32,463 bases of DNA from Escherichia coli. GTDB lineage: Bacteria; Pseudomonadota; Gammaproteobacteria; Enterobacterales; Enterobacteriaceae. Shown piece after piece: positions 8,475-28,952 of the stretch (its first letter is position 1; every line of letters starts with the position of its first letter). Under the pieces are notes generated by a model that was given only the letters and a program-made list of their open reading frames with translations, was not told the DNA's origin and ran no database searches. The stretch is from the NCBI RefSeq assembly GCF_003334385.1, contig NZ_QOWN01000051.1; one strand, written 5' to 3'. Both the position numbers and the translations under genes were made by a program.

Positions 8475-10508
8475 TCACGCGTCCGGGAACATCACGCTAT
8501 GGCCCGGCGCTTCACGATGGAGATGAATAAAGTTAAGGTGCCGCTCGTACTGGTCAAGAATATCGGTGATCACCTGCTCTTTGCTGTAGTCCATCAGGTC
8601 GTTGCCCTGGCTGCCTTCTAACAGGAAGGTTTCCAGCCGGTAGTAGGTCGATTTACCGCTGCGTGCGCGGTAGGTAAAGCCCGGCACCGAATATTGCTGC
8701 GGCCAAATCTGATAGACAAAGTTTTGCTCTTCGCCCATATGCACCAACAAATCCAGATGACCCAACTGCTGTCCCTCTTCCGGTGGCAGGCTTTTTAGCT
8801 CCACGTACGCGCCGCGCAACCGCAACTCCTGCGCCACTTCTTCCATTGCCGGGTAACAGACCGTCTCCATCATCTGTTTAGTGTAACGCGTGCCCGGATA
8901 ATTCATCAGGCGCGAGAGACGTTTTTTCCAGCTCAGGCGATCCTGAAGCCCCAGCGGTCGCGGTGCGGTATCGCGGTTGGCACTTTCACGGCGGTAATCT
9001 TCTACCTTCAGAGATTTATACAACCCCGCCATCACGAAGAAGATCACAAAGCTGAACGGCAGCCCCATAATCACCGTGGTGTTTTGCAGCGCGGATATCC
9101 CGTTAGTCATCAGCATGCCGAGCGTCAGCAGGCCAATCGCCACCGACCAGAAGACGCGCAGCCAGCCGGGGGCGTCGCTGTTGATATCTTTAAGCTGCGA
9201 GGTGAAATTCCCCAGCACCAGCGCCCCGGAGTCCGCCGAGGTCACATAAAACAGCAGGCCAGTAATGGTGGCGACGGAGGCGCTAAAGGTAAACGCCGGA
9301 TACTGCGCCAGCAGGCTGTAGAAGCCGCGCTCCGGATGGACCATCGCTTCCTCGGCAAATGCCGCGCCGCCGTGGATGATTTCATACAGCGCGCTATTGC
9401 CGAACACCGAGAGCCATAACAGCGTGAAGGTAAACGGAATAATCAACGTGCCCAGCACGAACTGGCGAATGGTACGCCCACGCGAGATACGCGCCAGGAA
9501 CAAGCCGACAAACGGCGACCATGCCACCCACCATGCCCAGAAGAAGAGCGTCCAGTTATTCATCCACTCAACCGGACGGTCGAAGGCAAAACTGTTGAGC
9601 GTCATGCCCATAAAGCGATTCACATAGTCGCCAACATTCAGCACCAGTGCATTAAGCAGGAACGAAGTGTCGCCCATAAACAATACGAACAGGATCAATC
9701 CCAGCGCCAGCGCGACATTAAGCTCCGATAACACGCGAATGCCCTTATCGACACCGGAGGTGACAGAGATCGTGGCGATTATCACCGACAAGGCGATCAG
9801 TGCCGCTTTCGCCGCCATCGAATCGGGAATATCAAACAGTACGCTCAAGCCATAGTTAAGCTGCACCACACCGATACCGAGCGTAGTGGCAATACCGAAG
9901 ATAGTGCCGATCACCGCTGCAATATCCACTGAGTGACCTATCGGCCCGTTAATCCGTTTACCGAAGATCGGGTACAGCGCCGAGCGGATGGTGAGCGGCA
10001 AATTATAACGATAGCTAAAGTATCCGAGCGCCATGCCCATCAGCGCATACATCGACCAGCCGGTTAAGCCGTAGTGAAACAGCGTCCAGACCATCGCCTG
10101 ACGCGCGGCCTCAATCGTCTGTCCCGCGCCTTCCGGCGGCTGCATATACTGCGTTACCGGTTCGGCTACGGAGAAGAACATCAGGTCGATACCGATCCCG
10201 GCAGCAAACAGCATCGCCGCCCAACTCAGCAGGCTGAATTCCGGTTTGGATTGTTCTGGCCCGAGCTTCACCGAACCAAAACGCGAACAAGCGATACAGA
10301 CCACAAAGACAATATAGAGCGTTGCCGCCAGCAGATAGTACCAACCGAAGGTTTTAGAAACCCAGTCCAGCGTGCGGCCAATCCACAGGGCCGAGAAGTC
10401 GCGAAACAGGATCGTTGTCAGGGAAAACAACAAAATCAGTCCGGCGGAGGTGTAAAACACCACCGGATTGATTTTGTCCTTTTCCCTGCTGTGTGAAAGG
10501 TCTGTCAT
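8475..10508 (-). CDS. betT: High-affinity choline transporter, BCCT family (677 aa)
   Basis: 677-aa polytopic ORF with BCCT-like sequence (WTLFFWAWWVAWSPFVGLFLARISRGRTIRQF); divergent from betI. Confidence 0.95.
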   Translation of the reverse strand: MTDLSHSREKDKINPVVFYTSAGLILLFSLTTILFRDFSALWIGRTLDWVSKTFGWYYLLAATLYIVFVVCIACSRFGSVKLGPEQSKPEFSLLSWAAMLFAAGIGIDLMFFSVAEPVTQYMQPPEGAGQTIEAARQAMVWTLFHYGLTGWSMYALMGMALGYFSYRYNLPLTIRSALYPIFGKRINGPIGHSVDIAAVIGTIFGIATTLGIGVVQLNYGLSVLFDIPDSMAAKAALIALSVIIATISVTSGVDKGIRVLSELNVALALGLILFVLFMGDTSFLLNALVLNVGDYVNRFMGMTLNSFAFDRPVEWMNNWTLFFWAWWVAWSPFVGLFLARISRGRTIRQFVLGTLIIPFTFTLLWLSVFGNSALYEIIHGGAAFAEEAMVHPERGFYSLLAQYPAFTFSASVATITGLLFYVTSADSGALVLGNFTSQLKDINSDAPGWLRVFWSVAIGLLTLGMLMTNGISALQNTTVIMGLPFSFVIFFVMAGLYKSLKVEDYRRESANRDTAPRPLGLQDRLSWKKRLSRLMNYPGTRYTKQMMETVCYPAMEEVAQELRLRGAYVELKSLPPEEGQQLGHLDLLVHMGEEQNFVYQIWPQQYSVPGFTYRARSGKSTYYRLETFLLEGSQGNDLMDYSKEQVITDILDQYERHLNFIHLHREAPGHSVMFPDA

Positions 10509-10572
10509 CCAGTATCCCCACTGTTATTGTTACTATTTAAAATCAAATTCGTAACAATTAAGACACATTTTA

Positions 10573-10592
10573 TATTGAACGTCCAATCAATA
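10573..10592. promoter_or_regulatory. Inverted repeat TATTGA-N8-TCAATA in the betT/betI divergent promoter region; candidate BetI operator
   Basis: Directly visible palindrome TATTGAACGTCCAATCAATA in the 128-bp AT-rich divergent intergenic region; TetR-family repressors bind such dyads. Not checked against a defined operator. Confidence 0.45.
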
Positions 10593-10636
10593 ACCGCTTT
10601 AATAGATAAACACCGCTGATGAATGGAGTGGCGAAA

Positions 10637-11224
10637 ATGCCCAAATTGGGGATGCAGTCGATCCGGCGCAGACAACTGATCGACGCCACACTGGAAGCAA
10701 TAAATGAAGTGGGCATGCACGATGCAACGATCGCGCAGATCGCCCGCCGTGCAGGCGTTTCTACGGGGATCATCAGCCACTATTTCAGGGACAAAAATGG
10801 TCTGCTGGAAGCAACCATGCGCGATATCACCAGTCAGCTGCATGACGCGGTTTTGAATCGATTACATGCACTTCCGCAGGGCAGTGCAGAGCAGCGATTA
10901 CAGGCGATTGTTGGCGGAAACTTCGATGAAACGCAGGTGAGCAGTGCGGCGATGAAAGCCTGGCTGGCGTTCTGGGCCAGCAGTATGCATCAGCCGATGC
11001 TCTATCGTTTACAGCAGGTCAGCAGCCGCCGCTTGCTGTCGAATCTGGTGAGCGAGTTTCGTCGCGAATTGCCGCGCGAACAGGCACAGGAAGCGGGCTA
11101 CGGCCTGGCCGCGCTGATTGATGGATTATGGCTGCGCGCGGCTCTGAGCGGCAAACCGCTGGATAAAACCCGCGCTAATTCCCTGACCCGCCACTTTATC
11201 ACTCAGCATCTACCCACCGATTAA
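10637..11224 (+). CDS. betI: TetR-family repressor of the bet regulon (195 aa)
   Basis: TetR HTH ([27 protein letters not shown]). Start chosen at [13 protein letters not shown], the third ATG in the track ORF, to give the 195-aa length I recall for BetI. Confidence 0.9.
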
Positions 11225-11237
11225 CCGAGGAGACGTG

Positions 11238-12710
11238 ATGTCCCGAATGGCAGAACAGCAGCTTTATATACATGGTGGTTATACCTCCGCCACCAGCGGT
11301 CGCACCTTCGAGACCATTAACCCGGCCAACGGTAACGTGCTGGCGACCGTGCAGGCCGCCGGGCGCGAGGATGTCGATCGCGCCGTGAAAAGCGCCCAGC
11401 AGGGGCAAAAAATCTGGGCGTCGATGACCGCCATGGAGCGCTCGCGTATTCTGCGTCGGGCCGTTGATATTCTGCGTGAACGCAATGACGAACTCGCAAA
11501 ACTGGAAACCCTCGACACCGGAAAAGCATATTCGGAAACCTCAACCGTCGATATCGTTACCGGTGCGGACGTGCTGGAGTACTACGCCGGGCTGATCCCG
11601 GCGCTGGAAGGCAGCCAGATCCCGTTGCGTGAAACGTCCTTTGTGTATACCCGCCGCGAACCGCTGGGCGTAGTGGCAGGGATTGGCGCATGGAACTACC
11701 CGATCCAGATTGCCCTGTGGAAATCCGCCCCGGCGCTGGCGGCAGGCAACGCAATGATTTTCAAACCGAGCGAAGTTACCCCGCTTACCGCGTTAAAGCT
11801 GGCTGAAATTTACAGCGAAGCGGGCCTGCCGGACGGCGTATTTAACGTGTTGCCGGGCGTGGGCGCGGAGACCGGGCAATATCTGACCGAGCATCCGGGC
11901 ATTGCCAAAGTGTCATTTACCGGCGGTGTCGCCAGCGGCAAAAAAGTGATGGCTAACTCGGCGGCCTCTTCCCTGAAAGAAGTGACCATGGAACTGGGCG
12001 GTAAATCACCGCTGATCGTTTTCGATGATGCGGATCTCGATCTCGCCGCCGATATCGCCATGATGGCAAACTTCTTCAGCTCCGGTCAGGTGTGTACCAA
12101 TGGCACCCGCGTCTTCGTTCCGGCGAAATGCAAAGCCGCATTTGAGCAGAAAATTCTGGCGCGCGTTGAGCGCATTCGCGCGGGCGACGTTTTCGATCCG
12201 CAAACTAACTTCGGCCCGCTGGTCAGCTTCCCGCATCGCGATAACGTGCTGCGCTATATCGCCAAAGGCAAAGAGGAAGGCGCGCGCGTACTGTGCGGCG
12301 GCGATGTACTGAAAGGCGATGGCTTCGATAACGGCGCATGGGTTGCACCGACAGTGTTCACCGATTGCAGCGACGATATGACCATCGTGCGTGAAGAGAT
12401 CTTCGGGCCAGTGATGTCCATTCTGACCTACGAGTCGGAAGACGAAGTCATTCGCCGCGCTAACGATACCGACTACGGCCTGGCGGCGGGCATCGTGACA
12501 GCGGACCTGAACCGCGCGCATCGCGTCATTCATCAGCTGGAAGCGGGTATTTGCTGGATCAACACCTGGGGCGAATCCCCGGCAGAGATGCCCGTTGGCG
12601 GCTACAAACACTCCGGCATTGGTCGCGAGAACGGCGTGATGACGCTCCAGAGTTACACCCAGGTGAAGTCCATCCAGGTTGAGATGGCTAAATTCCAGTC
12701 CATATTCTAA
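11238..12710 (+). CDS. betB: Betaine-aldehyde dehydrogenase (490 aa)
   Basis: Aldehyde dehydrogenase signatures (ELGGKSP; catalytic-Cys region [13 protein letters not shown]); start 13 nt after the betI stop. Start placed at the second ATG (MSRMAEQQ). Confidence 0.95.
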
Positions 12711-12723
12711 CCAGGAGGTTTAT

Positions 12724-14394
12724 TTGCAATTTGACTACATCATTATTGGTGCCGGCTCAGCCGGCAACGTTCTCGCTACCCGTCTGACTGAAGATCCGAA
12801 TACCTCCGTGCTGCTGCTTGAAGCGGGCGGCCCGGACTATCGCTTTGACTTCCGCACCCAGATGCCCGCTGCCCTGGCATTCCCGCTACAGGGTAAACGC
12901 TACAACTGGGCCTATGAAACGGAACCTGAACCGTTTATGAATAACCGCCGCATGGAGTGCGGACGCGGTAAAGGTCTGGGTGGATCGTCGCTGATCAACG
13001 GCATGTGCTACATCCGTGGCAATGCGCTGGATCTCGATAACTGGGCGCAAGAACCCGGTCTGGAGAACTGGAGCTACCTCGACTGCCTGCCCTACTACCG
13101 CAAGGCCGAGACTCGCGATATGGGTGAAAACGACTATCACGGCGGTGATGGCCCGGTGAGCGTCACTACCTCCAAACCCGGCGTCAATCCGCTGTTTGAA
13201 GCGATGATTGAAGCGGGCGTGCAGGCGGGCTACCCGCGCACGGACGATCTCAACGGTTATCAGCAGGAAGGTTTTGGTCCGATGGATCGCACCGTCACGC
13301 CGCAGGGCCGTCGCGCCAGCACCGCGCGTGGCTATCTCGATCAGGCCAAATCGCGTCCTAACCTGACCATTCGTACTCACGCTATGACCGATCACATCAT
13401 TTTTGACGGCAAACGCGCGGTGGGCGTCGAATGGCTGGAAGGCGACAGCACCATCCCAACCCGCGCAACGGCCAACAAAGAAGTGCTGTTATGTGCAGGC
13501 GCGATTGCCTCACCGCAGATCCTGCAACGCTCCGGCGTCGGCAACGCTGAACTGCTGGCGGAGTTTGATATTCCGCTGGTGCATGAATTACCCGGCGTCG
13601 GCGAAAATCTTCAGGATCATCTGGAGATGTATCTGCAATATGAGTGCAAAGAACCGGTTTCCCTCTACCCTGCCCTGCAGTGGTGGAACCAGCCGAAAAT
13701 CGGTGCGGAGTGGCTGTTTGGCGGCACTGGCGTTGGTGCCAGCAACCACTTTGAAGCAGGTGGATTTATTCGCAGCCGTGAGGAATTTGCGTGGCCGAAT
13801 ATTCAGTACCATTTCCTGCCAGTAGCGATTAACTATAACGGCTCGAATGCAGTGAAAGAGCACGGTTTCCAGTGCCACGTCGGCTCAATGCGCTCGCCAA
13901 GCCGTGGGCATGTGCGGATTAAATCCCGCGACCCGCACCAGCATCCGGCGATTCTGTTTAACTACATGTCGCACGAGCAGGACTGGCAGGAGTTCCGCGA
14001 CGCAATTCGCATCACCCGCGAGATCATGCATCAACCCGCGCTGGATCAGTATCGTGGCCGCGAAATCAGCCCCGGTGTCGAATGCCAGACGGATGAACAG
14101 CTCGATGAGTTCGTGCGTAACCACGCCGAAACCGCCTTCCATCCGTGCGGTACCTGCAAAATGGGTTACGACGAGATGTCCGTGGTTGACGGCGAAGGCC
14201 GCGTACACGGGTTAGAAGGCCTGCGTGTGGTGGATGCGTCGATTATGCCGCAGATTATCACCGGGAATTTGAACACCACGACAATTATGATTGGCGAGAA
14301 AATAGCGGATATGATTCGTGGACAGGAAGCGCTGCCGAGGAGCACGGCGGGATATTTTGTGGCAAATGGGATGCCGGTGAGAGCGAAAAAATGA
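12724..14394 (+). CDS. betA: Choline dehydrogenase, GMC oxidoreductase (556 aa), probable TTG start
   Basis: N-terminal FAD-binding motif [15 protein letters not shown]. The sequence I recall for BetA begins MQFDY, which corresponds to a TTG at 12724 sitting 7 nt after an AGGAGG; the track ATG at 12679 would overlap the betB 3' end. Confidence 0.9.
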
Positions 14395-14430
14395 GTCGTG
14401 ATGTGAACTAACGCAGGAACCGATCAGATT

Positions 14431-14489
14431 GAGAGTTACCGTTCCAGAGAGGGGGACCGAATCCTTATATAAACACTGAGGTAACTCTC
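14431..14489 (+). terminator. Long stem-loop (10-bp perfect arms GAGAGTTACC/GGTAACTCTC, 39-nt interior) 37 nt after the betA stop; possible terminator or structured 3' element
   Basis: Directly visible inverted repeat; the next 30 nt include GCGGGCTTTTTGC. Confidence 0.35.
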
Positions 14490-14606
14490 ATGCTTCATAT
14501 CCAGTATTCATGATGCGGGCTTTTTGCTGATATTTAACCCGAACATTCCTGATACAGACTATTAATACAACCTTATCTGCGACAGATTTTATTCTCTGGA
14601 TATATT

Positions 14607-15275
14607 ATGCGTGAACAAATCAAACAGGATATCGATCTGATTGAGATTTTATTTTATCTGAAGAAAAAGATTCGTGTTATCCTTTTTATTATGGCTATAT
14701 GTATGGCTATGGTGCTGTTGTTTCTGTATATCAATAAAGACAATATAAAAGTGATTTACAGCCTAAAAATAAACCAGACAACGCCAGGTATACTTGTTAG
14801 CTGTGATAGCAATAATAATTTTGCCTGTCAGACTACAATGACTGAAGATGTTATTCAGCGAATTACTACATTTTTTCACACCAGCCCAGATGTCAAGAAC
14901 AGAGAAATAAGGCTGGAATGGTCAGGAGATAAGAGAGCTTTACCAACTGCTGAAGAGGAAATATCTCGCGTGCAGGCCTCTATTATCAAATGGTATGCGT
15001 CAGAATATCATAATGGCAGGCAAGTTCTCGATGAGATACAAACGCCTTCAGCAATTAACAGTGAGCTTTATACAAAAATGATATACCTGACCAGGAACTG
15101 GTCATTGTATCCGAACGGTGATGGCTGTGTAACTATAAGCTCACCAGAAATAAAAAATAAATACCCTGCTGCCATTTGCCTGGCTCTGGGATTTTTTCTA
15201 AGCATTGTAATTTCTGTAATGTTTTGCCTTGTCAAAAAAATGGTAGATGAATACCAACAAAACTCTGGGCAGTAA
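14607..15275 (+). CDS. ykgH: Bitopic inner-membrane protein (222 aa), function unknown
   Basis: Hydrophobic segments near both N-terminus (VILFIMAICMAMVLLFLYI) and C-terminus (AAICLALGFFLSIVISVMFCLV) flanking a hydrophilic domain of about 140 aa; markedly AT-rich coding sequence. Confidence 0.8.
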   Translation: MREQIKQDIDLIEILFYLKKKIRVILFIMAICMAMVLLFLYINKDNIKVIYSLKINQTTPGILVSCDSNNNFACQTTMTEDVIQRITTFFHTSPDVKNREIRLEWSGDKRALPTAEEEISRVQASIIKWYASEYHNGRQVLDEIQTPSAINSELYTKMIYLTRNWSLYPNGDGCVTISSPEIKNKYPAAICLALGFFLSIVISVMFCLVKKMVDEYQQNSGQ

Positions 15276-15517
15276 TAAACAACATTCTGATAGAGAGTGC
15301 CTGTATAAAGCTGAAGTGACAATGACCGGGAAGGGAACCCGTTTTCAGGAATGGATGCCTGTCTTTTTCACTGTAAATATCCTGGCATTGGTAATACCAG
15401 GATATTTACAGAAGAGCAGCATAACCATGACGGAACGGGGTTAAGTCAGGTTGTCCTAAACGCTATTTTCAACCTCGTATGCCTTCTTCAGGTTTATGTC
15501 CAGACTTCATATCTCTC

Positions 15518-16213
15518 TCAACAATCCTCAATAATCAGATACACCGCTTTCACCGGGCCATGAACTCCGACGACTTTGATAAGCTCAATATCCGCCGTTG
15601 AACTGGGGCCGCTAATGATGTTAATGCAGGAAGGCATTCGTTCACCGGCCTGCGCTTTCTGATGCAATTTTTCTGCGAGTTGCGCTACACGCGGCAGGAT
15701 AGTGCTTTTACGCAGGATAAAAAGAGAATATTCCGGGAGCAGGCTCAATGAACGCCCGCGCTCGGCGGCGGAAAAAAGAACCACACCTCCCGATTCGGTT
15801 AAACCATATTCAGCATACACAACACCCACTTTAGCCTGCTCTGCCTGCGAGATATTCTCGGCACCTTTCGCCGGATCCCAAACAACGGCATTGCATTCCT
15901 GCTGCAAACGTTCGCTAATCCCCAATTCCTCCAGCCTCGTGTCACCGCTAATCACGACCGACTGATCTCCCAGCTCTTTACACAGACGTATTGCAGCTTC
16001 TGCCGCCTTCGCCTCGCTGGTCAGCTCACAGCGCGTCAACATAACATCGCTGGCAAACTGAATAAACGCGTCACAGCGCTGCTGTTGGTTAAGTTGGGTA
16101 AGCCGCTCGTTAGCATAGTTGTTAAGCGGCGCATCTTCTGCTTGCGGTTCAAGTCGCAGCGGGCGACCCAGTGCCTGAGCAACGTTATTCAAAAATTCGC
16201 CTCGATTATCCAT
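15518..16213 (-). CDS. ykgG: LutC-like subunit of a LutABC-type three-gene oxidase system (231 aa)
   Basis: Start chosen at MDNRGEFLNNVAQALGRPL (231 aa), which overlaps the ykgF stop by 8 nt; the track ORF extends 51 codons further upstream into ykgF. Confidence 0.85.
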   Translation of the reverse strand: MDNRGEFLNNVAQALGRPLRLEPQAEDAPLNNYANERLTQLNQQQRCDAFIQFASDVMLTRCELTSEAKAAEAAIRLCKELGDQSVVISGDTRLEELGISERLQQECNAVVWDPAKGAENISQAEQAKVGVVYAEYGLTESGGVVLFSAAERGRSLSLLPEYSLFILRKSTILPRVAQLAEKLHQKAQAGERMPSCINIISGPSSTADIELIKVVGVHGPVKAVYLIIEDC

Positions 16214-17633
16214 TCTTTTTCTCCTGCGCCTGATGTTTCTTAAACCAACTACGGAAACTCTCTCCGTCAGCTTCAGGAAGATCGCGTGCTTCCATCCAGT
16301 CGCTAATCGCGCCAAATTTGAGTGGTGTTTTGCCGCCATTGATAAACCAGCTTGCCGCATGAGCACCGGCCATCATCCCGACTTTCCACAATCCTGGATG
16401 ACTATTGGCATAAGCGAACATTTTTATCGCCCGTTGCTCTGCTTTTGCGGTGATCCCTTTTTCAGCCATCACCCGACGATGACGCAAAATCAGTTTTGAC
16501 AGCGGAATACGCACCGGACACACGTTGTCACAAGCTGTGCATAAAGAGCAGGCGTAGGGTAAATCTTTAAAATCTTTATAGCCGCCAAGTAGCGGAGAAA
16601 TCACCGCACCAATTGGCCCTGGATAAATAGAGCCATATCCATGACCGCCAATATGGCGATATGCCGGACAAGTATTCATACAAGCCCCGCAGCGAATACA
16701 GCGCAGCACATCCCGAAATTCAGAGGCCAGCACCTCAGAACGCCCGTTATCGACAATAACCAGATGAAACTCTTCAGGACCATCAACGTGCCCAGCTTCG
16801 CGCGGTCCTGTCAGCCAGGTGTTGTATCCCGTCAAACGTGCACCAACGGCACTGCGCGCCAGCATGGTGATCAATACATCTACCTCGGCAAACGTGGGGG
16901 CAATACGCTCCATTCCCATCACTGCAATATGCGTTTTAGGCAGCGTGGTACACATTCGCGCATTACCTTCATTGGTCACCAGGCATACCGAACCGGTCTC
17001 TGCCACCGCGAAATTACAGCCGGTAATACCTATTTCAGCACTGAGGAAATCTTCGCGGATTTTTTGCCGGATGAATAAGGTCATCGCTTCAGGCGTTTCC
17101 GGCCCCTCATAGCCCAGACGTTCGTGTAGCACTCGACGGATCTGATGGCGATCTTTATGAATTGCCGGGACCACAACATGAGATGGCGGATCTTGATCCA
17201 GCTGGAGAATATATTCACCCAGATCGGTTTCAATCACCTGAATGCCAGCATCCTGCAACACATGATTGACACCAATCTCTTCGGTCACCATCGATTTAGA
17301 TTTCACCACCTTCCGGGCATTTTTGCGTTGGGCAACCTGTAAAATGTAGCGGGTAGCGTCTTCTTTGGTTCTTGCAAAATAGACGTGACCGCCGTTTTGC
17401 GTCACTTTTTCTGAGAGCTGGTACAGATAAGCGTCGAGATTACTCAGAACATGATCACGTATCTGGGCGGCCCGATCGCGCCACTCCTCCCAGTGCCCCA
17501 ATTCATCGACCATTTTTTGCCGATTTGCCCCAATACGCTGCTGCGCGTTTGCCACCGCTTTGCGCATGATCGGATCTTCAATTTGCTGACGGATGCGTGT
17601 CTTAAAATCTGTATTACTGGTTTTGATCGACAT
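16206..17633 (-). CDS. ykgF: LutB-like iron-sulfur protein with two 4Fe-4S ferredoxin-type cysteine clusters (475 aa)
   Basis: CxxCxxCxxxCP motifs visible (CIRCGACMNTCPAY and CSLCTACDNVCPV). Confidence 0.9.
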   Translation of the reverse strand: MSIKTSNTDFKTRIRQQIEDPIMRKAVANAQQRIGANRQKMVDELGHWEEWRDRAAQIRDHVLSNLDAYLYQLSEKVTQNGGHVYFARTKEDATRYILQVAQRKNARKVVKSKSMVTEEIGVNHVLQDAGIQVIETDLGEYILQLDQDPPSHVVVPAIHKDRHQIRRVLHERLGYEGPETPEAMTLFIRQKIREDFLSAEIGITGCNFAVAETGSVCLVTNEGNARMCTTLPKTHIAVMGMERIAPTFAEVDVLITMLARSAVGARLTGYNTWLTGPREAGHVDGPEEFHLVIVDNGRSEVLASEFRDVLRCIRCGACMNTCPAYRHIGGHGYGSIYPGPIGAVISPLLGGYKDFKDLPYACSLCTACDNVCPVRIPLSKLILRHRRVMAEKGITAKAEQRAIKMFAYANSHPGLWKVGMMAGAHAASWFINGGKTPLKFGAISDWMEARDLPEADGESFRSWFKKHQAQEKKNG

Positions 17634-17643
17634 CTTTATATCC

Positions 17644-18363
17644 TCAGCGGCTCATCAACACTTCAGCAATATGCATCACTTTGACTTTCTGCCCTTCCCG
17701 TTGTAATCGCCCACTGATGTTTAGCAGGCAACTCACGTCAGCACCAATTAAATACTCAGGGCGGACTTCCATCAGGTGCGCAACCTTTTCTTTCACCATC
17801 TCGCCGGATATTTCGGCCATTTTGACCGAGAACGTGCCGCCAAATCCGCAGCAGGTATCCTGTTCAGCAAAGGTCAACAGCTCCAGTCCACGCACATTTT
17901 TCAGCAGCGTAAGTGGCTCGTCCTTCACTCCCAGCTTACGGGCCAGGCTACAAGATGGGTGATACACCGCTCTCCCTTGCAAACTGGCACCTACATCGAC
18001 TACCCCTAATTTATTAACAATAAAAGAGGTGAGATCCTGCATACGCGCGGCAACCTTTGCGGCACGTGATGCCCATTCAGGTTCATCCGCCAGATACGTC
18101 GGGTAACTTTTTACGGCATAGGTGCAAGAGCCAGCCGGTGAAATAATGGGATCGTCGTTATCCTCCAGTGCGGCGATCAGATTTTTCATCCCTGGAATCG
18201 CTTCTTTGATATAACCGCTATTGATCGCAGGCTGACCGCAGCATCCCTGTTTCTCCGGGAAATTTACGCGACAGCCGAGTTTTTCCAGTAGCAGCACGGA
18301 GTCTCGTGCCATTCTTGATTTCAGGGCGTCACCAATACAGGTGACAAAGAAATTGACATTCAC
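17644..18363 (-). CDS. ykgE: LutA-like cysteine-rich (CCG-domain) Fe-S oxidoreductase subunit (239 aa)
   Basis: Cys-rich motifs (CCGQP, CSL, CCGFGG) typical of CCG domains; 10 nt upstream of ykgF. Confidence 0.9.
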   Translation of the reverse strand: MNVNFFVTCIGDALKSRMARDSVLLLEKLGCRVNFPEKQGCCGQPAINSGYIKEAIPGMKNLIAALEDNDDPIISPAGSCTYAVKSYPTYLADEPEWASRAAKVAARMQDLTSFIVNKLGVVDVGASLQGRAVYHPSCSLARKLGVKDEPLTLLKNVRGLELLTFAEQDTCCGFGGTFSVKMAEISGEMVKEKVAHLMEVRPEYLIGADVSCLLNISGRLQREGQKVKVMHIAEVLMSR

Positions 18364-18889
18364 AACTAATACTCCATTACTTCATGCCCATTTATGCCCG
18401 ATGTTTCCCCCCCACCGGGGGATCAATCATCAATAAATATGGCGTTCTTTTTTAATTGGCTAGCAACATACCCCCCCTCATTTGTATGACAAATGATAAT
18501 CTTTCATCCAAACGTCAAATGCAATAACTAATTTTATTTCTTTCGGCATCGCTCACATTTTATGGGGAAATCGACGATCATTTTTGGCATAAGAAATCCA
18601 TTTAAAAATGGCTACATCCCTTATACCTATTCAGAGCTACTTATTCAGGGGTTATTGAGATATACACTGATGGTGTACAAAAAAATCACCGACAATAATC
18701 ACGTATCAAGTAATAGTCGGGATTTTATTTAATTGAAGCAATTTAGTTTGCATTTTTATTTAAAAACTGAGCTAGAGTCCATCAGAAAAAATATATAAAG
18801 CCCAAACCACCGTTGGAAATAGAAATAGTTGAAAGGCTCACAACTCCCGGAATGCGGATTATCTTTGCCCTGATTTCTGGCGGTTTTAT

Positions 18890-19744
18890 TCAGGGTGCAA
18901 GCTGTCTGACCCTTTCCCGATATTCTCCCGGGGTACAACCAAACTCGCGGACAAACGCCTTGTGAAAAGATGATTCACTGGCATAGCCTACTGACTCAGC
19001 GATCACCACAACAGGGAGCGTTTCCCGGGAAAACATCTGGGCCGCTATTTGTAGACGCAACTTTGTTAATACAGCCAGCGGCGTGGTTCCGGAAACATCA
19101 CGGAAAAGCTGGGCAAAACTTGCCCGGGACATGTGAGCGATGCTGGCCAGCGATTCGACGGTCCAGGCGTGTCCTGGCATTTCCAGCATTTGCTGTATTA
19201 CCGCACCAAGACGTGGATGCAGAAGCAAACTGAGAATGTTTTTCTCAGTATTAACCTGTGCAATCCACTCACGCACCGCGAGGGTAAAGAATGTAGCGCA
19301 GATCTGGCTACACAGTGCATCCACTCCCGGCATTGCCGATCTGGATTCCTGTTGTAAAAACGGGATCGCCTCCCTCAGCCAGTTATATTCCACGCTGTGG
19401 TTAACCGGTGCTAAAAACAGCGTTTCCGGCAAAGACGTTAAAAAATAACGCGCCGAATGTTGCAACCGAAGAGTGCCGCAGACAATACAGGTCGATTCAT
19501 TATCGACATGACTCAGGCGATGAGCTGAATTTTGTGGTAGCAGGACCACATTTCCCGGGCGTAATGTAAAAATCTCCCCCGTCGGCATTTCCAGCTTCGC
19601 CGCTCCTTGCGTTAACGCATGCCAACGAATAACCGATAATTCCCCGGCACCATGTGGAAGCTGCCAGTCACTTCCTAACACGCAATTCTTATCGATCGTT
19701 CCTTGTGGAGCGTTAAGCATCAACAAACGGCTAAGGGCATCCAT
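18890..19744 (-). CDS. rclR: AraC-family redox-sensing activator of the reactive-chlorine-stress operon (284 aa)
   Basis: C-terminal AraC-type HTH; N-terminal cysteines at about positions 21 and 89, matching the redox-sensing Cys pair I recall for RclR; divergent from rclA. Confidence 0.9.
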   Translation of the reverse strand: MDALSRLLMLNAPQGTIDKNCVLGSDWQLPHGAGELSVIRWHALTQGAAKLEMPTGEIFTLRPGNVVLLPQNSAHRLSHVDNESTCIVCGTLRLQHSARYFLTSLPETLFLAPVNHSVEYNWLREAIPFLQQESRSAMPGVDALCSQICATFFTLAVREWIAQVNTEKNILSLLLHPRLGAVIQQMLEMPGHAWTVESLASIAHMSRASFAQLFRDVSGTTPLAVLTKLRLQIAAQMFSRETLPVVVIAESVGYASESSFHKAFVREFGCTPGEYRERVRQLAP

Positions 19745-19969
19745 ATCAGACTCCTGAGTGGTTTTTGATTACAAACACCAACAATCTTAGTAAATAACTA
19801 ATCTAATACCATCAAATAGTTAATCATGATTTTTGTTTTGTGATTCTGATTAAGAAAAAGAAAATATCAGACGATAAGACAAAATATCAAGCGTTGTGAA
19901 GAAATGTTATTTGCTCTTTTGCGTCTATAGTCATGATGTCAAATGAACGCGTTTCGACAGGAAATCATC

Positions 19970-21295
19970 ATGAATAAATATCAGGCAGTGATTATTGGTT
20001 TTGGCAAGGCTGGAAAAACATTAGCCGTCACGCTGGCAAAAGCAGGTTGGCGAGTGGCTCTCATCGAACAATCAAATGCAATGTATGGCGGGACCTGTAT
20101 TAATATCGGCTGCATCCCAACCAAAACATTGGTTCATGACGCACAGCAGCACACAGATTTTGTCCGTGCCATACAGCGTAAAAATGAAGTGGTTAATTTT
20201 TTACGTAATAAGAATTTTCATAATCTTGCGGATATGCCCAATATCGACGTGATCGACGGCCAGGCGGAGTTTATCAATAATCATAGCCTGCGTGTTCATC
20301 GGCCTGAGGGAAATCTGGAAATTCATGGCGAGAAAATTTTTATTAATACCGGTGCACAAACCGTGGTTCCGCCAATTCCTGGAATTACCACCACGCCAGG
20401 AGTATATGACAGCACCGGATTACTTAATCTAAAAGAATTGCCTGGGCATTTAGGTATTTTGGGCGGCGGATATATTGGCGTTGAGTTCGCCTCTATGTTC
20501 GCTAATTTTGGCAGCAAGGTAACCATTTTAGAAGCAGCTTCGCTGTTTTTGCCTCGGGAAGATCGGGATATTGCTGATAATATCGCGACGATTTTACGCG
20601 ATCAGGGCGTCGATATTATCCTCAATGCCCATGTGGAGCGAATCAGTCACCATGAAAATCAAGTGCAAGTGCATAGCGAGCACGCCCAACTGGCGGTGGA
20701 TGCACTGTTAATAGCTTCCGGTCGTCAACCGGCTACCGCTTCGTTACATCCAGAAAATGCCGGTATCGCAGTAAACGAGCGCGGGGCAATTGTCGTTGAC
20801 AAGCGATTACATACCACCGCAGACAATATTTGGGCGATGGGAGATGTTACCGGCGGGCTGCAATTTACTTACATATCACTGGATGATTACCGCATTGTAC
20901 GTGATGAGTTACTGGGTGAAGGCAAACGTAGTACTGATGATCGGAAAAATGTGCCTTATTCCGTATTTATGACACCGCCCCTGTCCAGGGTTGGTATGAC
21001 AGAAGAACAAGCCAGAGAGAGTGGTGCTGATATTCAGGTGGTGACATTGCCTGTAGCTGCAATTCCGCGTGCCAGAGTGATGAATGATACTCGTGGGGTA
21101 TTAAAAGCGATTGTTGATAATAAAACCCAACGTATGTTAGGGGCATCACTGCTGTGTGTTGACTCCCACGAGATGATCAATATAGTGAAAATGGTGATGG
21201 ATGCCGGGCTGCCTTATAGCATATTACGCGATCAGATATTTACTCATCCGTCGATGAGCGAATCACTCAATGATCTATTTTCATTAGTCAAATAA
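19970..21295 (+). CDS. rclA: Pyridine nucleotide-disulfide oxidoreductase family flavoprotein (441 aa)
   Basis: N-terminal FAD dinucleotide-binding motif (VIIGFGKAGK) and redox-active CxxxxC (GGTCINIGCIP). Start chosen at MNKYQAVIIGFG with an upstream GGA-rich RBS. Confidence 0.9.
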   Translation: MNKYQAVIIGFGKAGKTLAVTLAKAGWRVALIEQSNAMYGGTCINIGCIPTKTLVHDAQQHTDFVRAIQRKNEVVNFLRNKNFHNLADMPNIDVIDGQAEFINNHSLRVHRPEGNLEIHGEKIFINTGAQTVVPPIPGITTTPGVYDSTGLLNLKELPGHLGILGGGYIGVEFASMFANFGSKVTILEAASLFLPREDRDIADNIATILRDQGVDIILNAHVERISHHENQVQVHSEHAQLAVDALLIASGRQPATASLHPENAGIAVNERGAIVVDKRLHTTADNIWAMGDVTGGLQFTYISLDDYRIVRDELLGEGKRSTDDRKNVPYSVFMTPPLSRVGMTEEQARESGADIQVVTLPVAAIPRARVMNDTRGVLKAIVDNKTQRMLGASLLCVDSHEMINIVKMVMDAGLPYSILRDQIFTHPSMSESLNDLFSLVK

Positions 21296-21403
21296 ACTCA
21301 AAATCAGACGCCAGAACAAATATTCTGGCGTCTCAGAGAAAAGAATCTTATTAATTCTCTGTTACTCTATAACTTCTTAATCACTTCATTGATGGTATTT
21401 TAT

Positions 21404-21640
21404 ATGTTTAAAAAATCTGTTTTATTTGCAACACTATTATCTGGCGTTATGGCATTTTCCACCAATGCAGATGATAAAATAATTCTGAAACATATCAGCG
21501 TCTCGTCAGTATCAGCATCACCGACAGTTCTGGAGGATACCATTGCTGATATAGCCAGAAAATATAATGCTTCATCCTGGAAAGTCACATCGATGCGAAT
21601 TGATAATAATTCAACCGCAACAGCAGTATTGTATAAATAA
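21404..21640 (+). CDS. rclB: Small periplasmic DUF1471 (YdgH/BhsA-like) protein (78 aa)
   Basis: Signal-peptide-like N-terminus MFKKSVLFATLLSGVMAFSTNA; start chosen at MFKK. Confidence 0.85.
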   Translation: MFKKSVLFATLLSGVMAFSTNADDKIILKHISVSSVSASPTVLEDTIADIARKYNASSWKVTSMRIDNNSTATAVLYK

Positions 21641-21651
21641 GGATGTTCACA

Positions 21652-22245
21652 ATGGAAAAATACCTGCACCTGTTAAGTCGGGGAGATAAAATTGGCCTGA
21701 CATTGATTCGTCTGAGTATTGCAATTGTTTTTATGTGGATTGGGTTATTAAAGTTTGTCCCTTACGAGGCAGACAGCATTACACCATTCGTCGCAAACAG
21801 TCCACTAATGTCGTTCTTTTATGAACACCCGGAAGACTATAAACAGTATCTGACTCACGAAGGCGAATACAAACCAGAAGCAAGGGCATGGCAAACGGCC
21901 AATAATACCTATGGTTTTTCCAACGGTCTTGGCGTCGTGGAGGTGATTATTGCTCTGCTGGTTTTGGCTAATCCTGTCAATCGCTGGTTAGGTTTATTGG
22001 GAGGACTGATGGCATTTACCACGCCGCTGGTAACACTCTCATTTTTAATCACCACCCCGGAGGCATGGGTACCCGCATTGGGTGACGCTCATCATGGTTT
22101 CCCTTATTTATCCGGTGCTGGTCGCCTGGTATTGAAAGATACTCTGATGCTGGCAGGTGCAGTCATGATAATGGCAGATTCGGCGCGGGAAATTCTTAAA
22201 CAACGCAGTAATGAATCCAGTTCAACGTTAAAAACTGAATATTGA
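21652..22245 (+). CDS. rclC: Inner-membrane protein of the rcl operon (197 aa)
   Basis: Multi-TM hydrophobic ORF immediately after rclB; start chosen at MEKYLHLL. Confidence 0.85.
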   Translation: MEKYLHLLSRGDKIGLTLIRLSIAIVFMWIGLLKFVPYEADSITPFVANSPLMSFFYEHPEDYKQYLTHEGEYKPEARAWQTANNTYGFSNGLGVVEVIIALLVLANPVNRWLGLLGGLMAFTTPLVTLSFLITTPEAWVPALGDAHHGFPYLSGAGRLVLKDTLMLAGAVMIMADSAREILKQRSNESSSTLKTEY

Positions 22246-22403
22246 TAATCCGAACACTGTCTGTTGTTCACTTTTTCAGGCGTCAGGCCCCCTTTCTGAT
22301 GATGAAGCCTGACGCCATATTACCGGAGATATGACAGAGTGAAGATCAATATCACTCCCTGTTAAAAGGTTTTTGTCGTCTTAGGTAAAATACATGATTA
22401 ATA

Positions 22404-22571
22404 TCAATCATGTATTTTTACAGCAAGACAACCACGAACAAATTCAGGATTAAAATGTTTTACCGACTCCCCAACATAACCCAAATCAAGCGAACTAATT
22501 TGTGCCATTTCTTTATCTGTCAGTGAGAAATCGATTTTTGATGGGCATCTGCAATACTCTGAAGCAGACTA
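22404..22571 (-). pseudogene. C-terminal remnant of an aldo-keto-reductase-like gene (ykgQ-like pseudogene)
   Basis: Hand translation of the minus strand gives ...KIDFSLTDKEMAQISSLDLGYVGESVKHFNPEFVRGCLAVKIHD*, resembling AKR C-termini; an in-frame stop sits immediately upstream and another frame carries a further fragment (...VCFVVPENREV...), so the gene is disrupted. Confidence 0.4.
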
Positions 22572-22834
22572 TACGGAAAATTCCACTGTCAGTCCCTCCA
22601 TTAGGCATGAACAATGAGTCTACGTTAAAACGTAACCTCAAAGTAGTATGTGGATTTTGATATCACTTATGCAAAAAATTCATTAATAATGTAGGACTGA
22701 AACCTCTCTATTTTCGGGGACAACGAAGCAGACGCTACCAGTGCTTTTGCCTTCGCCCTTGCTATTTTTGATACACTTAGGGCCCAGGGTATAACGAAAA
22801 TGTGCGATATGACAAAGAATTAACGGAGAATGAG

Positions 22835-23686
22835 ATGATCAGGCAGAATATTCTACAGCAGCTCCTGGAGTGGATTGAGTGCAATCTTGAGCACCCTATT
22901 TCAATCGAAGATATCGCACAGAAATCTGGCTACAGCAGACGCAACATCCAGCTTCTGTTCCGAAATTTCATGCATGTGCCTTTGGGAGAATACATTCGCA
23001 AACGAAGGCTTTGTCGTGCCGCCATTCTTGTCCGGCTCACCGCGAAATCTATGCTTGATATTGCACTCTCTTTGCATTTTGATTCACAGCAGTCATTCAG
23101 CCGCGAATTTAAAAAGTTATTCGGCTGCTCTCCCCGTGAATACCGCCACCGTGATTATTGGGATCTCGCAAATATCTTCCCTTCTTTTTTAATACGTCAA
23201 CAGCAAAAGACGGAGTGTAGATTAATCAACTTTCCTGAGACACCTATTTTTGGCAACTCATTTAAATATGACATTGAAGTGTCGAATAAATCACCGGATG
23301 AAGAAGTCAAACTACGACGTCATCATTTAGCCAGATGTATGAAGAATTTTAAGACGGATATCTATTTCGTTTCCACGTTTGAACCGTCAACAAAATCGGT
23401 CGATTTGCTCACGGTTGAAACTTTTGCTGGTACGGTATGTGAATATGCTGACATGCCAAAAGAGTGGACAACGACCCGAGGACTTTATGCCTCTTTCCGT
23501 TATGAAGGAAACTGGGAAAATTATCCTGACTGGGTGCGTAACATCTATCTGATAGAGTTACCTGCCAGGGGGTTAGCCAGAGTGAACGGCAGCGATATTG
23601 AGCGCTTTTATTACAATGAAGATTTCGTAGAAAAGGATGGCAATGATGTTGTTTGCGAAATTTTTATTCCCGTTCGTCCGGTTTAG
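22835..23686 (+). CDS. ykgA: AraC-family regulator with N-terminal HTH and C-terminal GyrI-like effector domain, apparently full length (283 aa)
   Basis: AraC-type HTH near the N-terminus (ISIEDIAQKSGYSRRNIQLLFRNF...FSREFKKLFGCSPREYR). Start chosen at MIRQNILQQLLEW. Confidence 0.8.
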   Translation: MIRQNILQQLLEWIECNLEHPISIEDIAQKSGYSRRNIQLLFRNFMHVPLGEYIRKRRLCRAAILVRLTAKSMLDIALSLHFDSQQSFSREFKKLFGCSPREYRHRDYWDLANIFPSFLIRQQQKTECRLINFPETPIFGNSFKYDIEVSNKSPDEEVKLRRHHLARCMKNFKTDIYFVSTFEPSTKSVDLLTVETFAGTVCEYADMPKEWTTTRGLYASFRYEGNWENYPDWVRNIYLIELPARGLARVNGSDIERFYYNEDFVEKDGNDVVCEIFIPVRPV

Positions 23687-23714
23687 TTGGTCACTATCTC
23701 TTATTGAGTTTTAT

Positions 23715-23750
23715 CCTTGCCTGATACTATTTAATCAGTATCAGGCAAGG
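23715..23750. terminator. Perfect 14-bp inverted repeat (CCTTGCCTGATACT / AGTATCAGGCAAGG, 8-nt loop) between convergent ykgA and eaeH
   Basis: Directly visible; no strong T-tract on either side, so terminator function is an inference. Confidence 0.45.
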
Positions 23751-23825
23751 TATTCAGTGAATAATGGCGTTGAATATTTCAACACCATTATTCTTTATTA
23801 GATCGTAACTTTCATACTATTCAAA

Positions 23826-26800
23826 TTATGGCATCTCCTCCTCGCCATTTTCAGTCTCTGCAGCAACGGCGTTAATTGTCACCTTCACAGGCGTCATTTC
23901 GTACCCGCCATACGTCAGTGCGTTGAATGTGAACGTATAGACACCTGGCTTGCTGGTACTAAATGTACGCGTGATTTTCCCACCTGAGAAATGGTCAGCC
24001 TTCGACGGCAGGAATTGATAATCCTTCTCCGTCACTCCTTCCGGAGCCTCAATGTCGACCCACATACTTCCTCCTACGGGATTGACTCCCGCCATCAGGG
24101 TAACCGTCATTGTTGCAGTAGTCTTCCCGTCCGCCACCAGAGAATCTACACGTTCTGGAGATGCGGCGAGCACCGCGTTTTTATCATCCGCGACGAATTT
24201 AGATTCAGCAGTTTTCGTCGATACCTGACCGTTGGCCTGTTCCACTTTCGCCGTGAGTGTATATGTCGCTGCGATAGTGGTAGAGCCGGTGAAAACAGCC
24301 TGTCCTTGCTCATTAGTTTTCGCCGTCCCTTTAGGATCCAGAACTAAATTTTCCGAGCTGGCAGTCAGCGTCACGTCGCTATCCTTCAACAGGTTGTTAT
24401 TGGCATCAGTCACCGTAACTTTATACGTCTGTTTGGTTTTGCCATCCGCCACTGCACGGTTGCCAATCACCTCAATACTGGAGATGGTCGCCGTAGTCTT
24501 ATCGGCCACAAACGTTACAGACTGCGCATTCGAAGGCTGGTCATTTCCTGCCGACGCCGTGATCTCATACGTTCCGGCAGTCACGGAGACCACTTTCAGT
24601 TCCGCTTTACCCTCCTTGTCGGCGTTCACCATGATATTACCGTCTGCAAGCGGTTTGACGCCCCGAGGCAGATTAAAGACGACCACAGCGCCAGGCAGAA
24701 GGTTGCCGTATTGATCCTTAACCGTTGCCGTCAGCGTAAAGGCATCATTGTCGTTTGCCACTTTTGGCGTGCTGCCATCAACCTCCAGGGTCGCCTGACC
24801 GGTACTGAAATCCGCCTTGAATTTCACCGTAACCGTCTTCTGAGCATTATTCACTGAGGCCGTGATGCTGTGTTCCCCCGCAACCGTTGACATAAGCTCA
24901 ATGTCCACTTTCCCTGCCGCATTGGTTGTTACTGTATTCCCCGTCTTGCTGGTCACACCCTGCGGTAAAGTCAGCGTAACTTCTTGCCCCTGCAACGGGT
25001 TACCATAGCTGTCCACGACGGTCAGGGTTATCTGGTTAGCAGACTGTCCATTAGCCAGTTGGTTATTAACCTTCACTGTCATATCACGAATCTCAGCCTT
25101 AGATGCGTCACCTGCAACGTTCAGCACCAGTGGCTGAGCAACGGCATTTTGGCCGTTCACTCGCGGCATCACAGACAACTGACCCGCGGCAGATCCCAGC
25201 GTTAAGGTCGCCACGTAGACCCCATTACCTTTCTCTGTCCAGTTTCCTGCTGAAGGACGCTCACTCCCCGTGCTGGCGGCACCGCTAAACACTGGTGCAT
25301 CTGGCTTCAGCCCGGTGACCGGGTTCCCGTACGCATCCTTCACGGTGAAGGTGAGTTCCGTCGTCATTTTGACGGTCGGAGCCTTATTGTCCGCAACAAG
25401 CGTAGAGTTCGCTGATGACATCTCTCCGGCGATGACCGTCAACTGCGCGGCTTCGGTGGCTGCTGGCTGGCCGTTGAAGAGCGGCATGACACGAAGCTCG
25501 CCCGTCTTTCCGCCTGTAGTTAACGTAGCAACATAGGAACAGTCACCTTTTTCGGTCCAACTGGAAACGGTCGCCCCTTCAGAGGCGGTCCCCGTCAAAC
25601 TTGCCGACAACGAAAGACCACTGATAGTGTTGCCATGTGCATCTTTTGCAATAAGCGTCACGGTTGTGCTTTCGCCGGCTTTTACGTGATCTTCTGCGAC
25701 AGAGACTTTCGACTGGTTTGAAGATAACGCATCAGCCACCACGGTTACTTTTGCCGCATTTGCTGCCGCATCCTGTCCATTTAGCTTCGGCATAACTTCT
25801 AATTCACCCGCCGTAGAGCCGAGAGTAATCTGCGCAGTCCACGTCCCATCACCATTATTTGTCCAGCCAGATGCCGTAGAACCTACAGCAGCGGCACCCG
25901 CTAATGACGGCGCTTCCGGCGTGAGGCTGGTCACAGGGTTGTCATAGGCATCTTTTGCCGTCCAGATTGCCGTAACTGTACCGCCAACCACCGGTTTATC
26001 AGGATTCAGGGTGATGGACGAATGTGCTGCATCAAGCGGACCGGCAACAAACTTCAGCGTTTGTTGTAATGTGCCCAGCTGATACTGCTCGCTGAAAGCA
26101 CGCACAACAACGTTTCCGGCACGGGTCGAAGAAACCGTGGCGCTGTAAACGCCTGGTTTTATTTCCGAAATGGCACCAACGGTTACACCATTAGTGTCTT
26201 GCGGAACAAATCGCAAGCGGCTGGCTTCTCCCGTCACCGGATTACCCTCGGAGTCCACCGCAGTCAACGTCAACGTATAGGCTTGCTGACCATCAGCAAC
26301 CACATCACCTGACGGCTCGTTAGCGCTCAGGGTGGAGTTTGCCACATCCATCATCGTGGCCCGCAGTTCTGCAGTGACGGTTTTGCTCATGCCATCAACG
26401 CTAACAGTAATCGTTGCCTCACCTGACTGCGTTCCGGTAGTAAAGACAGACTGATACACCCCTGCTTCAGTTTCGGTGAACTCACCCAGTGTTGGCTTTG
26501 CCTGTGATTTAGTGGCCTTCAGGGAACGAGTCACAATATTTCCAGCCGGTTTGAAGGCTAGTTCAGTCTTGATCTGATCTTTCATGCCCGTGACTGGCTG
26601 CCCCTCGGCGTCGCGCAGAGACAGCACCAGCGGTCTTTGCTCATTACCGTTAGCAAGCATTTGAATACGGCTCTGACCGTCAAGCGTTAACGCCGTGCGA
26701 TCGGCGCTCATACCTGCTCCGGTAATGACCACCTCTGTCTGCACGCGTTTTGAGGCATTGCCTTTGTTATCGTAGGCAACCGCAGAAATCGCATAATAAT

Positions 26801-28082: not shown

Positions 28083-28952
28083 TGAGATAATTTCCTGATG
28101 AACGAATTAACGAACATAGGCAGACACAAATAATGGCGTCTGCTTGTCAGAAAAACCGGGGATTTCCCGATTTCCTTTTCCGCAGAAAAGGAAATACCTT
28201 TATGTAAGAAAGTGCACCGCCACCTAATATATCCAGTGCCTATAGCCACTCATCAGGTGGTTGGGCGCGGGATTATATTTTTATTTATGGGGGAAAATTT
28301 AGCTTTTTGTGCAAGTCATTAAATAGATACCTAAGTTATATTTCTTACTCTGCGGACAGTGAATAATTCACTATTCAGAGTGAATAACAATGACCTGCCT
28401 TTAATTAAAACTATTGGAAATACGTCGAAATAGGTATATATGCCAGGATAAACCAATATATTTTTTATGGATATTCATTTTCCTTCATCGGACTGTAAAT
28501 TGCGGAGATATCGAACTTGCACTACCCATCGCAACACTCAAACAGATTTATGAATTTCGTTCATAACCCCTGACAAATTCTGCCGTCTAATCGAGCTTTT
28601 CCCTTTACGTTATGCTTCTCATGAACGATAACACAACTTGTTCATGAATTAACCATTCCGGATAAACTATGGGATCAAATTCAGGCATCGAAAGGAACTG
28701 GCTGGTTTCCGTTAATGGATTAAATATCTATTATTCTCCCGAGAGTAAAACTATCAAATCAATGAGTAACCGATACAGCCTCACAAATTCTTTCAGATAA
28801 TTAACCCGTCACTGCGGCACGTTCTCTCATAAGGCGTGCCTGCAGTGTAATCCAGTATGTATCCGGCATAGTTGACGGTTTAATAGAACTCAATTCCTCT
28901 CCCAGGTCACCAACAACGATATCTTGTATAACACCCCAGGAGATACGACATT

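Follow-up and report, generated by a model that had tools for sequence, protein, structure and literature searches.

Register of the probable BetI recognition element between the divergent betT and betI genes of Escherichia coli

In the window (the whole 32,463-nt stretch of E. coli DNA that was analysed), the inverted repeat TATTGA-N8-TCAATA at 10573-10592 very probably lies inside a single BetI operator, whose recognition element is ATTGAAC·GTCCAAT at 10574-10587 (a centred dot marks an axis of symmetry throughout) and whose halves form the predicted −35 hexamers of both the betT and betI promoters. Judged by conservation among relatives, the conserved symmetric element is ATTGAAC·GTYCAAT, and the axis of the inverted repeat lies 2 bp to the right of its own. 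The BetI operator is already known: it is textbook E. coli biology and is routinely used as a part for synthetic gene circuits. The analysis corrects a detail, placing the axis at 10580/10581, and the half-sites double as predicted −35 boxes. The corrected register bears on the design of BetI operator mutants and on motif models. The initial annotation had itself listed the region as known biology, and rightly, as the bet divergon and the BetI operator were reportedly characterised in 1996 by Lamark et al. and by Rokenes et al.

The betT-betI locus

The genes and the intergenic region were assigned as follows.

8475-10508, minus strand: betT, choline BCCT transporter (ORF and RefSeq annotation; NCBIfam NF007399, 1314.8 bits against a cut-off of 695).
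10637-11224, plus strand: betI, choline-responsive TetR-family repressor (NCBIfam NF001978, 306 bits, cut-off 118; TIGR03384, 267.9 bits, cut-off 201.3).
11238-14394, plus strand: betB and betA, which follow betI in the betIBA operon (RefSeq annotation, mapped).
10509-10636, no strand assigned: betT-betI intergenic control region, 128 bp (sequence, ORFs, RefSeq annotation).
10625-10628, plus strand: Shine-Dalgarno sequence GGAG of betI (read in the sequence; at least 90% conserved).

Since betT begins with an ATG at 10508 (minus strand) and betI is annotated from an ATG at 10637, exactly 128 bp lie between the two genes, and the spacer measured 126-129 bp in 37 related species with a divergent betT. 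The region was 100% identical to that of E. coli K-12 MG1655 and was found in 5178 of 5426 complete E. coli genomes. BetI scored above the curated cut-offs of two equivalog models, NF001978 and TIGR03384, and the domains PF00440 and PF13977 (TetR_N and TetR_C_6) are recorded for close BetI homologues. The initial annotation's description of a 128-bp divergent betT/betI control region was confirmed by the ORFs, the RefSeq annotation, the identity to MG1655 and the NCBIfam models, and its identification of BetI as a TetR-family repressor agrees with the equivalog scores. The locus and sequence are those of the E. coli K-12 bet control region, with its divergent overlapping promoters, single operator and BetI that remains bound with choline (PMC5934670), and no biological difference from that system was seen.

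An in-frame ATG at 10619-10621, 18 nt 5' of the annotated betI start, was the start listed by the ORF tool. The start of betI was placed at 10637 rather than 10619 because the GGAG at 10625-10628 serves 10637. In addition, since the betI transcript is predicted to begin near 10610, no ribosome-binding site would be possible for the ATG at 10619.

Symmetry and register of the BetI box

Three overlapping elements, none assigned to a strand, were distinguished in the spacer.

10573-10592: inverted repeat TATTGA-N8-TCAATA proposed in the initial annotation (seen in the sequence; axis 10582/10583).
10574-10587: conserved BetI box core ATTGAAC·GTCCAAT, a 12/14 palindrome (axis 10580/10581; conservation and axis scan).
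10568-10593: longer conserved block, probably the full operator, TTTTATATTGAAC·GTCCAATCAATAA (column conservation, Acinetobacter alignment and the synthetic promoter PBetI).

Positions 10573-10592 read TATTGAACGTCCAATCAATA, that is TATTGA (10573-10578), 8 nt and TCAATA (10587-10592), so the repeat is present exactly as first described. The 128-bp spacer was shuffled 5000 times with dinucleotides preserved. Of the shuffles, 55% held one or more perfect 6+6 inverted repeats with arms 0-20 nt apart, and 5.6% held one with a spacer of exactly 8 nt. As a bare pattern, TATTGA-N8-TCAATA is statistically unremarkable and within chance, and a functional reading therefore needs outside evidence. The 40-mer that carries the repeat (10562-10601) was matched at every position by 5134 of the 5182 E. 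coli records.

Outside evidence was taken from a scan of one genome per species, which gave 80 Enterobacterales betI loci whose BetI proteins were 73-94% identical; the operator counts cover the 76 other Enterobacterales loci with enough upstream DNA. All 76 carried ATTG-N6-CAAT, at −60 to −66 from the betI ATG. Core sequences included ATTGAACGTCCAAT (43 species), ATTGAACGTGCAAT (16) and ATTGAACGTTCAAT (12), the last being a perfect palindrome. TATTGA-N8-TCAATA was perfect in just 9 of the 76 species, its right arm being TCAAAA in 63 and TTAAAA in 4. The TCAAAA arm of most relatives still matches at 5/6 positions, so the outer right arm is not evolving freely. The columns from 10568 to 10593 were at least 90% conserved with the exceptions of 10583 and 10591, and the variable base 10591 is the one that makes the outer repeat of E. 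coli perfect.

Every possible symmetry axis was then scored over 74 unique Enterobacterales sequences. The axis at 10580.5 was the best at all half-lengths, with 6.12/7, 7.16/10 and 9.96/13 complementary pairs; the axis at 10582.5 scored 3.88/7, 5.99/10 and 7.04/13. For E. coli by itself the two axes were tied at 7/10 complementary pairs, the outer repeat being perfect and the inner box having one mismatched pair (A10578/C10583).

The geometry of the two elements also differs. The arm centres of TATTGA-N8-TCAATA are 14 bp apart compared to about 10 bp in the conserved box. A single TetR-family dimer typically has half-site centres approximately one helical turn apart, as in the TetR-tetO and QacR-IR1 structures. 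With its 14-bp arm spacing and a symmetry kept in 9/76 species, the outer repeat departs from the pattern of a single TetR-type dimer site. The E. coli sequence at 10574-10587 has the betI-box geometry of the ATTGA-N4-TCAAT type (ATTG-N6-CAAT), which the N8/N10 pairing lacks, and it lies 50-63 bp upstream of the betI ATG, between the divergent genes. The proposal that the inverted repeat is a dyad suited to a TetR-family dimer therefore stood as to its location on the BetI operator and not as to its geometry, the conserved axis being 2 bp to the left (76/76 versus 9/76). No BetI-DNA complex was found in the PDB.

The same box was seen well outside the Enterobacterales. A tblastn search with BetI against plasmid and chromid records gave beta-, gamma- and alpha-proteobacterial loci, and the DNA upstream of betI was searched for palindromes in an unguided way. 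Of 12 distant chromid or plasmid loci, 9 had an ATTGAAC·GTTCAAT-type element (Burkholderia, Photobacterium, Vibrio, two Acinetobacter, Pseudomonas, Caballeronia as a variant, Paracoccus and Sinorhizobium M103). The palindrome was absent from the other three of these 12, a Sinorhizobium meliloti pSymA paralogue and a Mesorhizobium locus, neither of which is beside betBA, and an Azospirillum locus of unannotated context. When 10-mers were counted without guidance in 13 upstream regions, GTTCAATCAA (9/13) and TGAACGTTCA (8/13) came out on top. Among further loci, which were 50%-identity cluster representatives of metagenomic or genomic origin, the box was present in 3 of 6 (L095, L099 and L100). 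The palindrome stood at −33 to −145 upstream of betI in lineages with differing promoter layouts.

When aligned on their axes, the distant sites read TTATTG ATTGAAC·GTTCAAT CAATAA. In distant lineages the palindrome was often extended to TTATTGATTGAAC·GTTCAATCAATAA, as in the Acinetobacter site, with which the E. coli block at 10568-10593 aligns. Acinetobacter and Vibrio had perfect palindromes of 20-38 bp, those of Acinetobacter being up to 38 bp long. A betI box consensus has been published, and the BetI1 palindrome of Ruegeria pomeroyi, ATTGACG·CGTCAAT, lies within a 29-bp DNase I footprint (PMC12442346). The E. coli element thus shares ATTG-N6-CAAT upstream of betI with R. pomeroyi BetI1, Acinetobacter, Vibrio and Burkholderia, and differs from these boxes by one core mismatch (A/C) and the loss of the outer-left ATTG, whereas Acinetobacter has the perfect 38-bp palindrome.

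Two distant sites showed other spacings. In L096, a metagenomic locus, positions 24-43 read GATTGAAT-GGTC-GTTCAATC, so that 4 bp more separate the half-sites (ATTG-N10-CAAT). In Caballeronia (L088, about 2428-2447), TATTGATTGACCAATCAATA contains ATTG repeats at a 4-bp offset, giving N2, N6 and N10 registers. Given these two sites, the family does not have one strictly invariant half-site spacing.

Comparison of the halves suggests how the off-register repeat arose. The ancestral operator half-site appears, from the aligned sites, to hold a tandem ATTGATTG/CAATCAAT. In E. coli the outer copy is kept on the right (CAATCAATAA) and absent on the left (TTTTATATTG), and the outer left repeat was degenerate in all enterics examined. 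The right half, GTCCAAT-CAATAA, matches the Acinetobacter half at 12/13 positions, and the left half, TTTTAT-ATTGAAC, at 10/13. With the tandem repeat kept only on the right, the inner-left TATTGA can pair perfectly with the outer-right TCAATA. The outer repeat would then be an off-register alias of the tandem CAATCAAT, in which the inner-left ATTG is paired with the outer-right CAAT.

It is unlikely that TATTGA-N8-TCAATA is itself functional in E. coli, with the dimer contacting 10573-10578 and 10587-10592 and the inner symmetry being secondary. Its 6+6 arms are perfect and nearly invariant within E. coli, its axis ties with the inner one at a half-length of 10 in this species, and the spacing of L096 is a match from one distant locus. 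However, its right arm is TCAAAA or TTAAAA in 67 of the 76 relatives while the inner box is universal, such a pattern is expected by chance in a spacer of this kind, and an arm spacing of 14 bp exceeds the approximately one helical turn usual for a TetR-family dimer. The synthetic BetI-repressed promoter PBetI also lacks the perfect right arm: it carries AATTGATTGGACGTTCAATATAATG (PMC7058928), which matches 10570-10591 in reverse complement and then has T in place of the genomic A10592. Since T replaces A10592, the perfect outer arm is dispensable in PBetI.

Predicted promoters and occupancy by BetI

The preferred recognition element, ATTGAAC·GTCCAAT, was compared with the promoters predicted on each strand.

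10575-10580, plus strand: predicted betI −35 hexamer TTGAAC (in the best sigma-70-like pair; conserved).
10598-10603, plus strand: predicted betI −10 hexamer TTTAAT (transcription start predicted near 10610; conserved).
10581-10586, minus strand: predicted betT −35 hexamer TTGGAC (paired with CTTAAT; right half of the BetI box).
10557-10562, minus strand: predicted betT −10 hexamer CTTAAT (transcription start predicted near 10550).

These hexamers came from a lax scan; a stricter sigma-70 consensus scan of 10400-10750 returned no promoter at threshold. On the plus strand, TTGAAC, 17 nt and TTTAAT formed the best sigma-70-like pair (9/12 matches); on the minus strand it was TTGGAC/TGGACG (10586-10580) with CTTAAT (10562-10557). 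The plus-strand hexamers and both −35 half-sites were conserved among relatives. ATTAAG, the betT −10 as read on the plus strand, falls within the conserved block GTAACAATTAAG but was kept mainly in close relatives, and a CTTAAT-like betT −10 was absent from Pantoea-type loci. The predicted betT and betI starts are approximately 60 bp apart, in agreement with the 61 bp between the betT and betI transcript starts reportedly described in 1996 by Lamark et al. and Rokenes et al.

The two half-sites of the BetI box coincide with the best divergent −35 hexamers of the lax-scan prediction, TTGAAC and TTGGAC. This double role could account for part of the core's conservation. The recognition core would sit in a conserved block of approximately 22-26 bp (10568-10593), and we infer that one BetI dimer on the box would occlude RNA polymerase sterically at both back-to-back promoters. 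A single dimer would block both because the two half-sites are the two divergent predicted −35 hexamers. In QacR-IR1 and TetR-tetO, a helix-turn-helix TetR-family dimer is bound to a palindromic operator overlapping promoter elements, as proposed here for BetI. Rokenes et al. (1996) reportedly saw a 21-nt DNase I footprint over both −35 boxes and a single BetI-DNA complex, with the footprint unchanged by choline. A core of 14 bp and this reported footprint are suited to one dimer, as in TetR-tetO, rather than to a QacR-type dimer pair.

Genomic SELEX with choline gave one BetI site in the E. coli genome, in the overlapping promoters of the betI-betT spacer (PMC5934670). Together with the use of 10570-10591 in PBetI (PMC7058928), this single site bears out the initial placement of the inverted repeat on the BetI operator. 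The accompanying view that BetI represses both promoters in response to choline, if read as simple release by choline, is at odds with published work: in gel shifts E. coli BetI remains on the operator with choline (PMC5934670), and a review reports that choline releases the BetI of Acinetobacter baylyi but not that of E. coli (PMC7876524). A mobility-shift assay with and without choline, which would be one way to look for release, should therefore show no loss of binding.

Occupancy in several registers, with either two dimers placed on the tandem ATTG/CAAT elements in a QacR-like manner or a single dimer shifted by choline between N6 and N10, is decidedly improbable. Both the one stable complex and the choline-independent 21-nt footprint reported by Rokenes et al. 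speak against it, as does the degenerate outer left repeat of all enterics. A register shift of the dimer would nevertheless explain how E. coli BetI could be derepressed without leaving the DNA, and the ancestral operator would have had four ATTG/CAAT elements at a 4-bp offset, of which three are left in E. coli. Support by analogy comes from R. pomeroyi BetI2, which has two overlapping palindromes with one flank in common and affinities tuned by choline (PMC12442346), and the binding of E. coli BetI in the presence of choline (PMC5934670) is also consistent with such a shift. The BetI2 divergon resembles the E. coli locus in its arm-sharing overlapping dyads, its betI/betT-type layout and an effector that modulates rather than abolishes binding; however, the BetI2 boxes depart from the betI box consensus.

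By the same analogy, choline-bound BetI might slide 2-4 bp between ATTG-N6-CAAT and ATTG-N10-CAAT, which have the left arm in common, and so uncover one or both −35 hexamers, although this is very improbable. If true, re-registering of BetI would account for the long-standing oddity of derepression while the protein is bound to DNA.

It is scarcely credible that the conservation reflects promoter elements only (the two −35 hexamers and A/T-rich flanks), with a dyad symmetry incidental to BetI: the half-sites do coincide with predicted −35 hexamers and a 6+6 repeat is expected by chance, but the same palindrome occurs upstream of betI in different promoter layouts (−33 to −145), is footprinted by BetI1 in R. 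pomeroyi and brings a synthetic promoter under BetI repression when placed in its spacer, and binding outside the native promoter context has effectively been shown with the synthetic promoter and the 29-bp R. pomeroyi probe.

Other repeats and sites in the window

A perfect 8+8 inverted repeat that is longer than TATTGA-N8-TCAATA, ATTGTTAC-N17-GTAACAAT (10526-10533 and 10551-10558), is also present in the spacer, in the promoter and leader region of betT. It was rejected as an alternative operator at 10526-10558, both arms existing in E. coli only. Relatives have TTTGTAAC as the left arm, which gives a direct repeat G[TC]AAC[AT]ATT approximately 23 bp apart, and the right element, TAACAAT, was kept in all Enterobacterales examined.

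On the minus strand of the same region (10522-10558), TGTTAC-N5-TGATTT-N5-AGTAAC was read by eye as three weak TGTTA-like direct repeats with 11-bp phasing. They fall downstream of the predicted betT start and could be the ArcA-P site responsible for the anaerobic repression that has been reported for the bet genes.

The sole candidate for a second BetI site, ATTGAACGTTATAT at 30821-30834, comprises half a BetI box with 2 mismatches in the AT-rich ykgL-ecpR spacer. It was rejected as probably a chance match, genomic SELEX reporting one BetI target. The ykgL-ecpR coordinates in the window are offset by approximately 2.1 kb from those expected from the MG1655-derivative record NZ_CP032667.1, the difference falling in about 14400-30300 of the window, and the best full matches of 30300-31300 were in two pieces spanning an IS1 element. 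The offset points to a strain-to-strain insertion or deletion difference within about 14400-30300.
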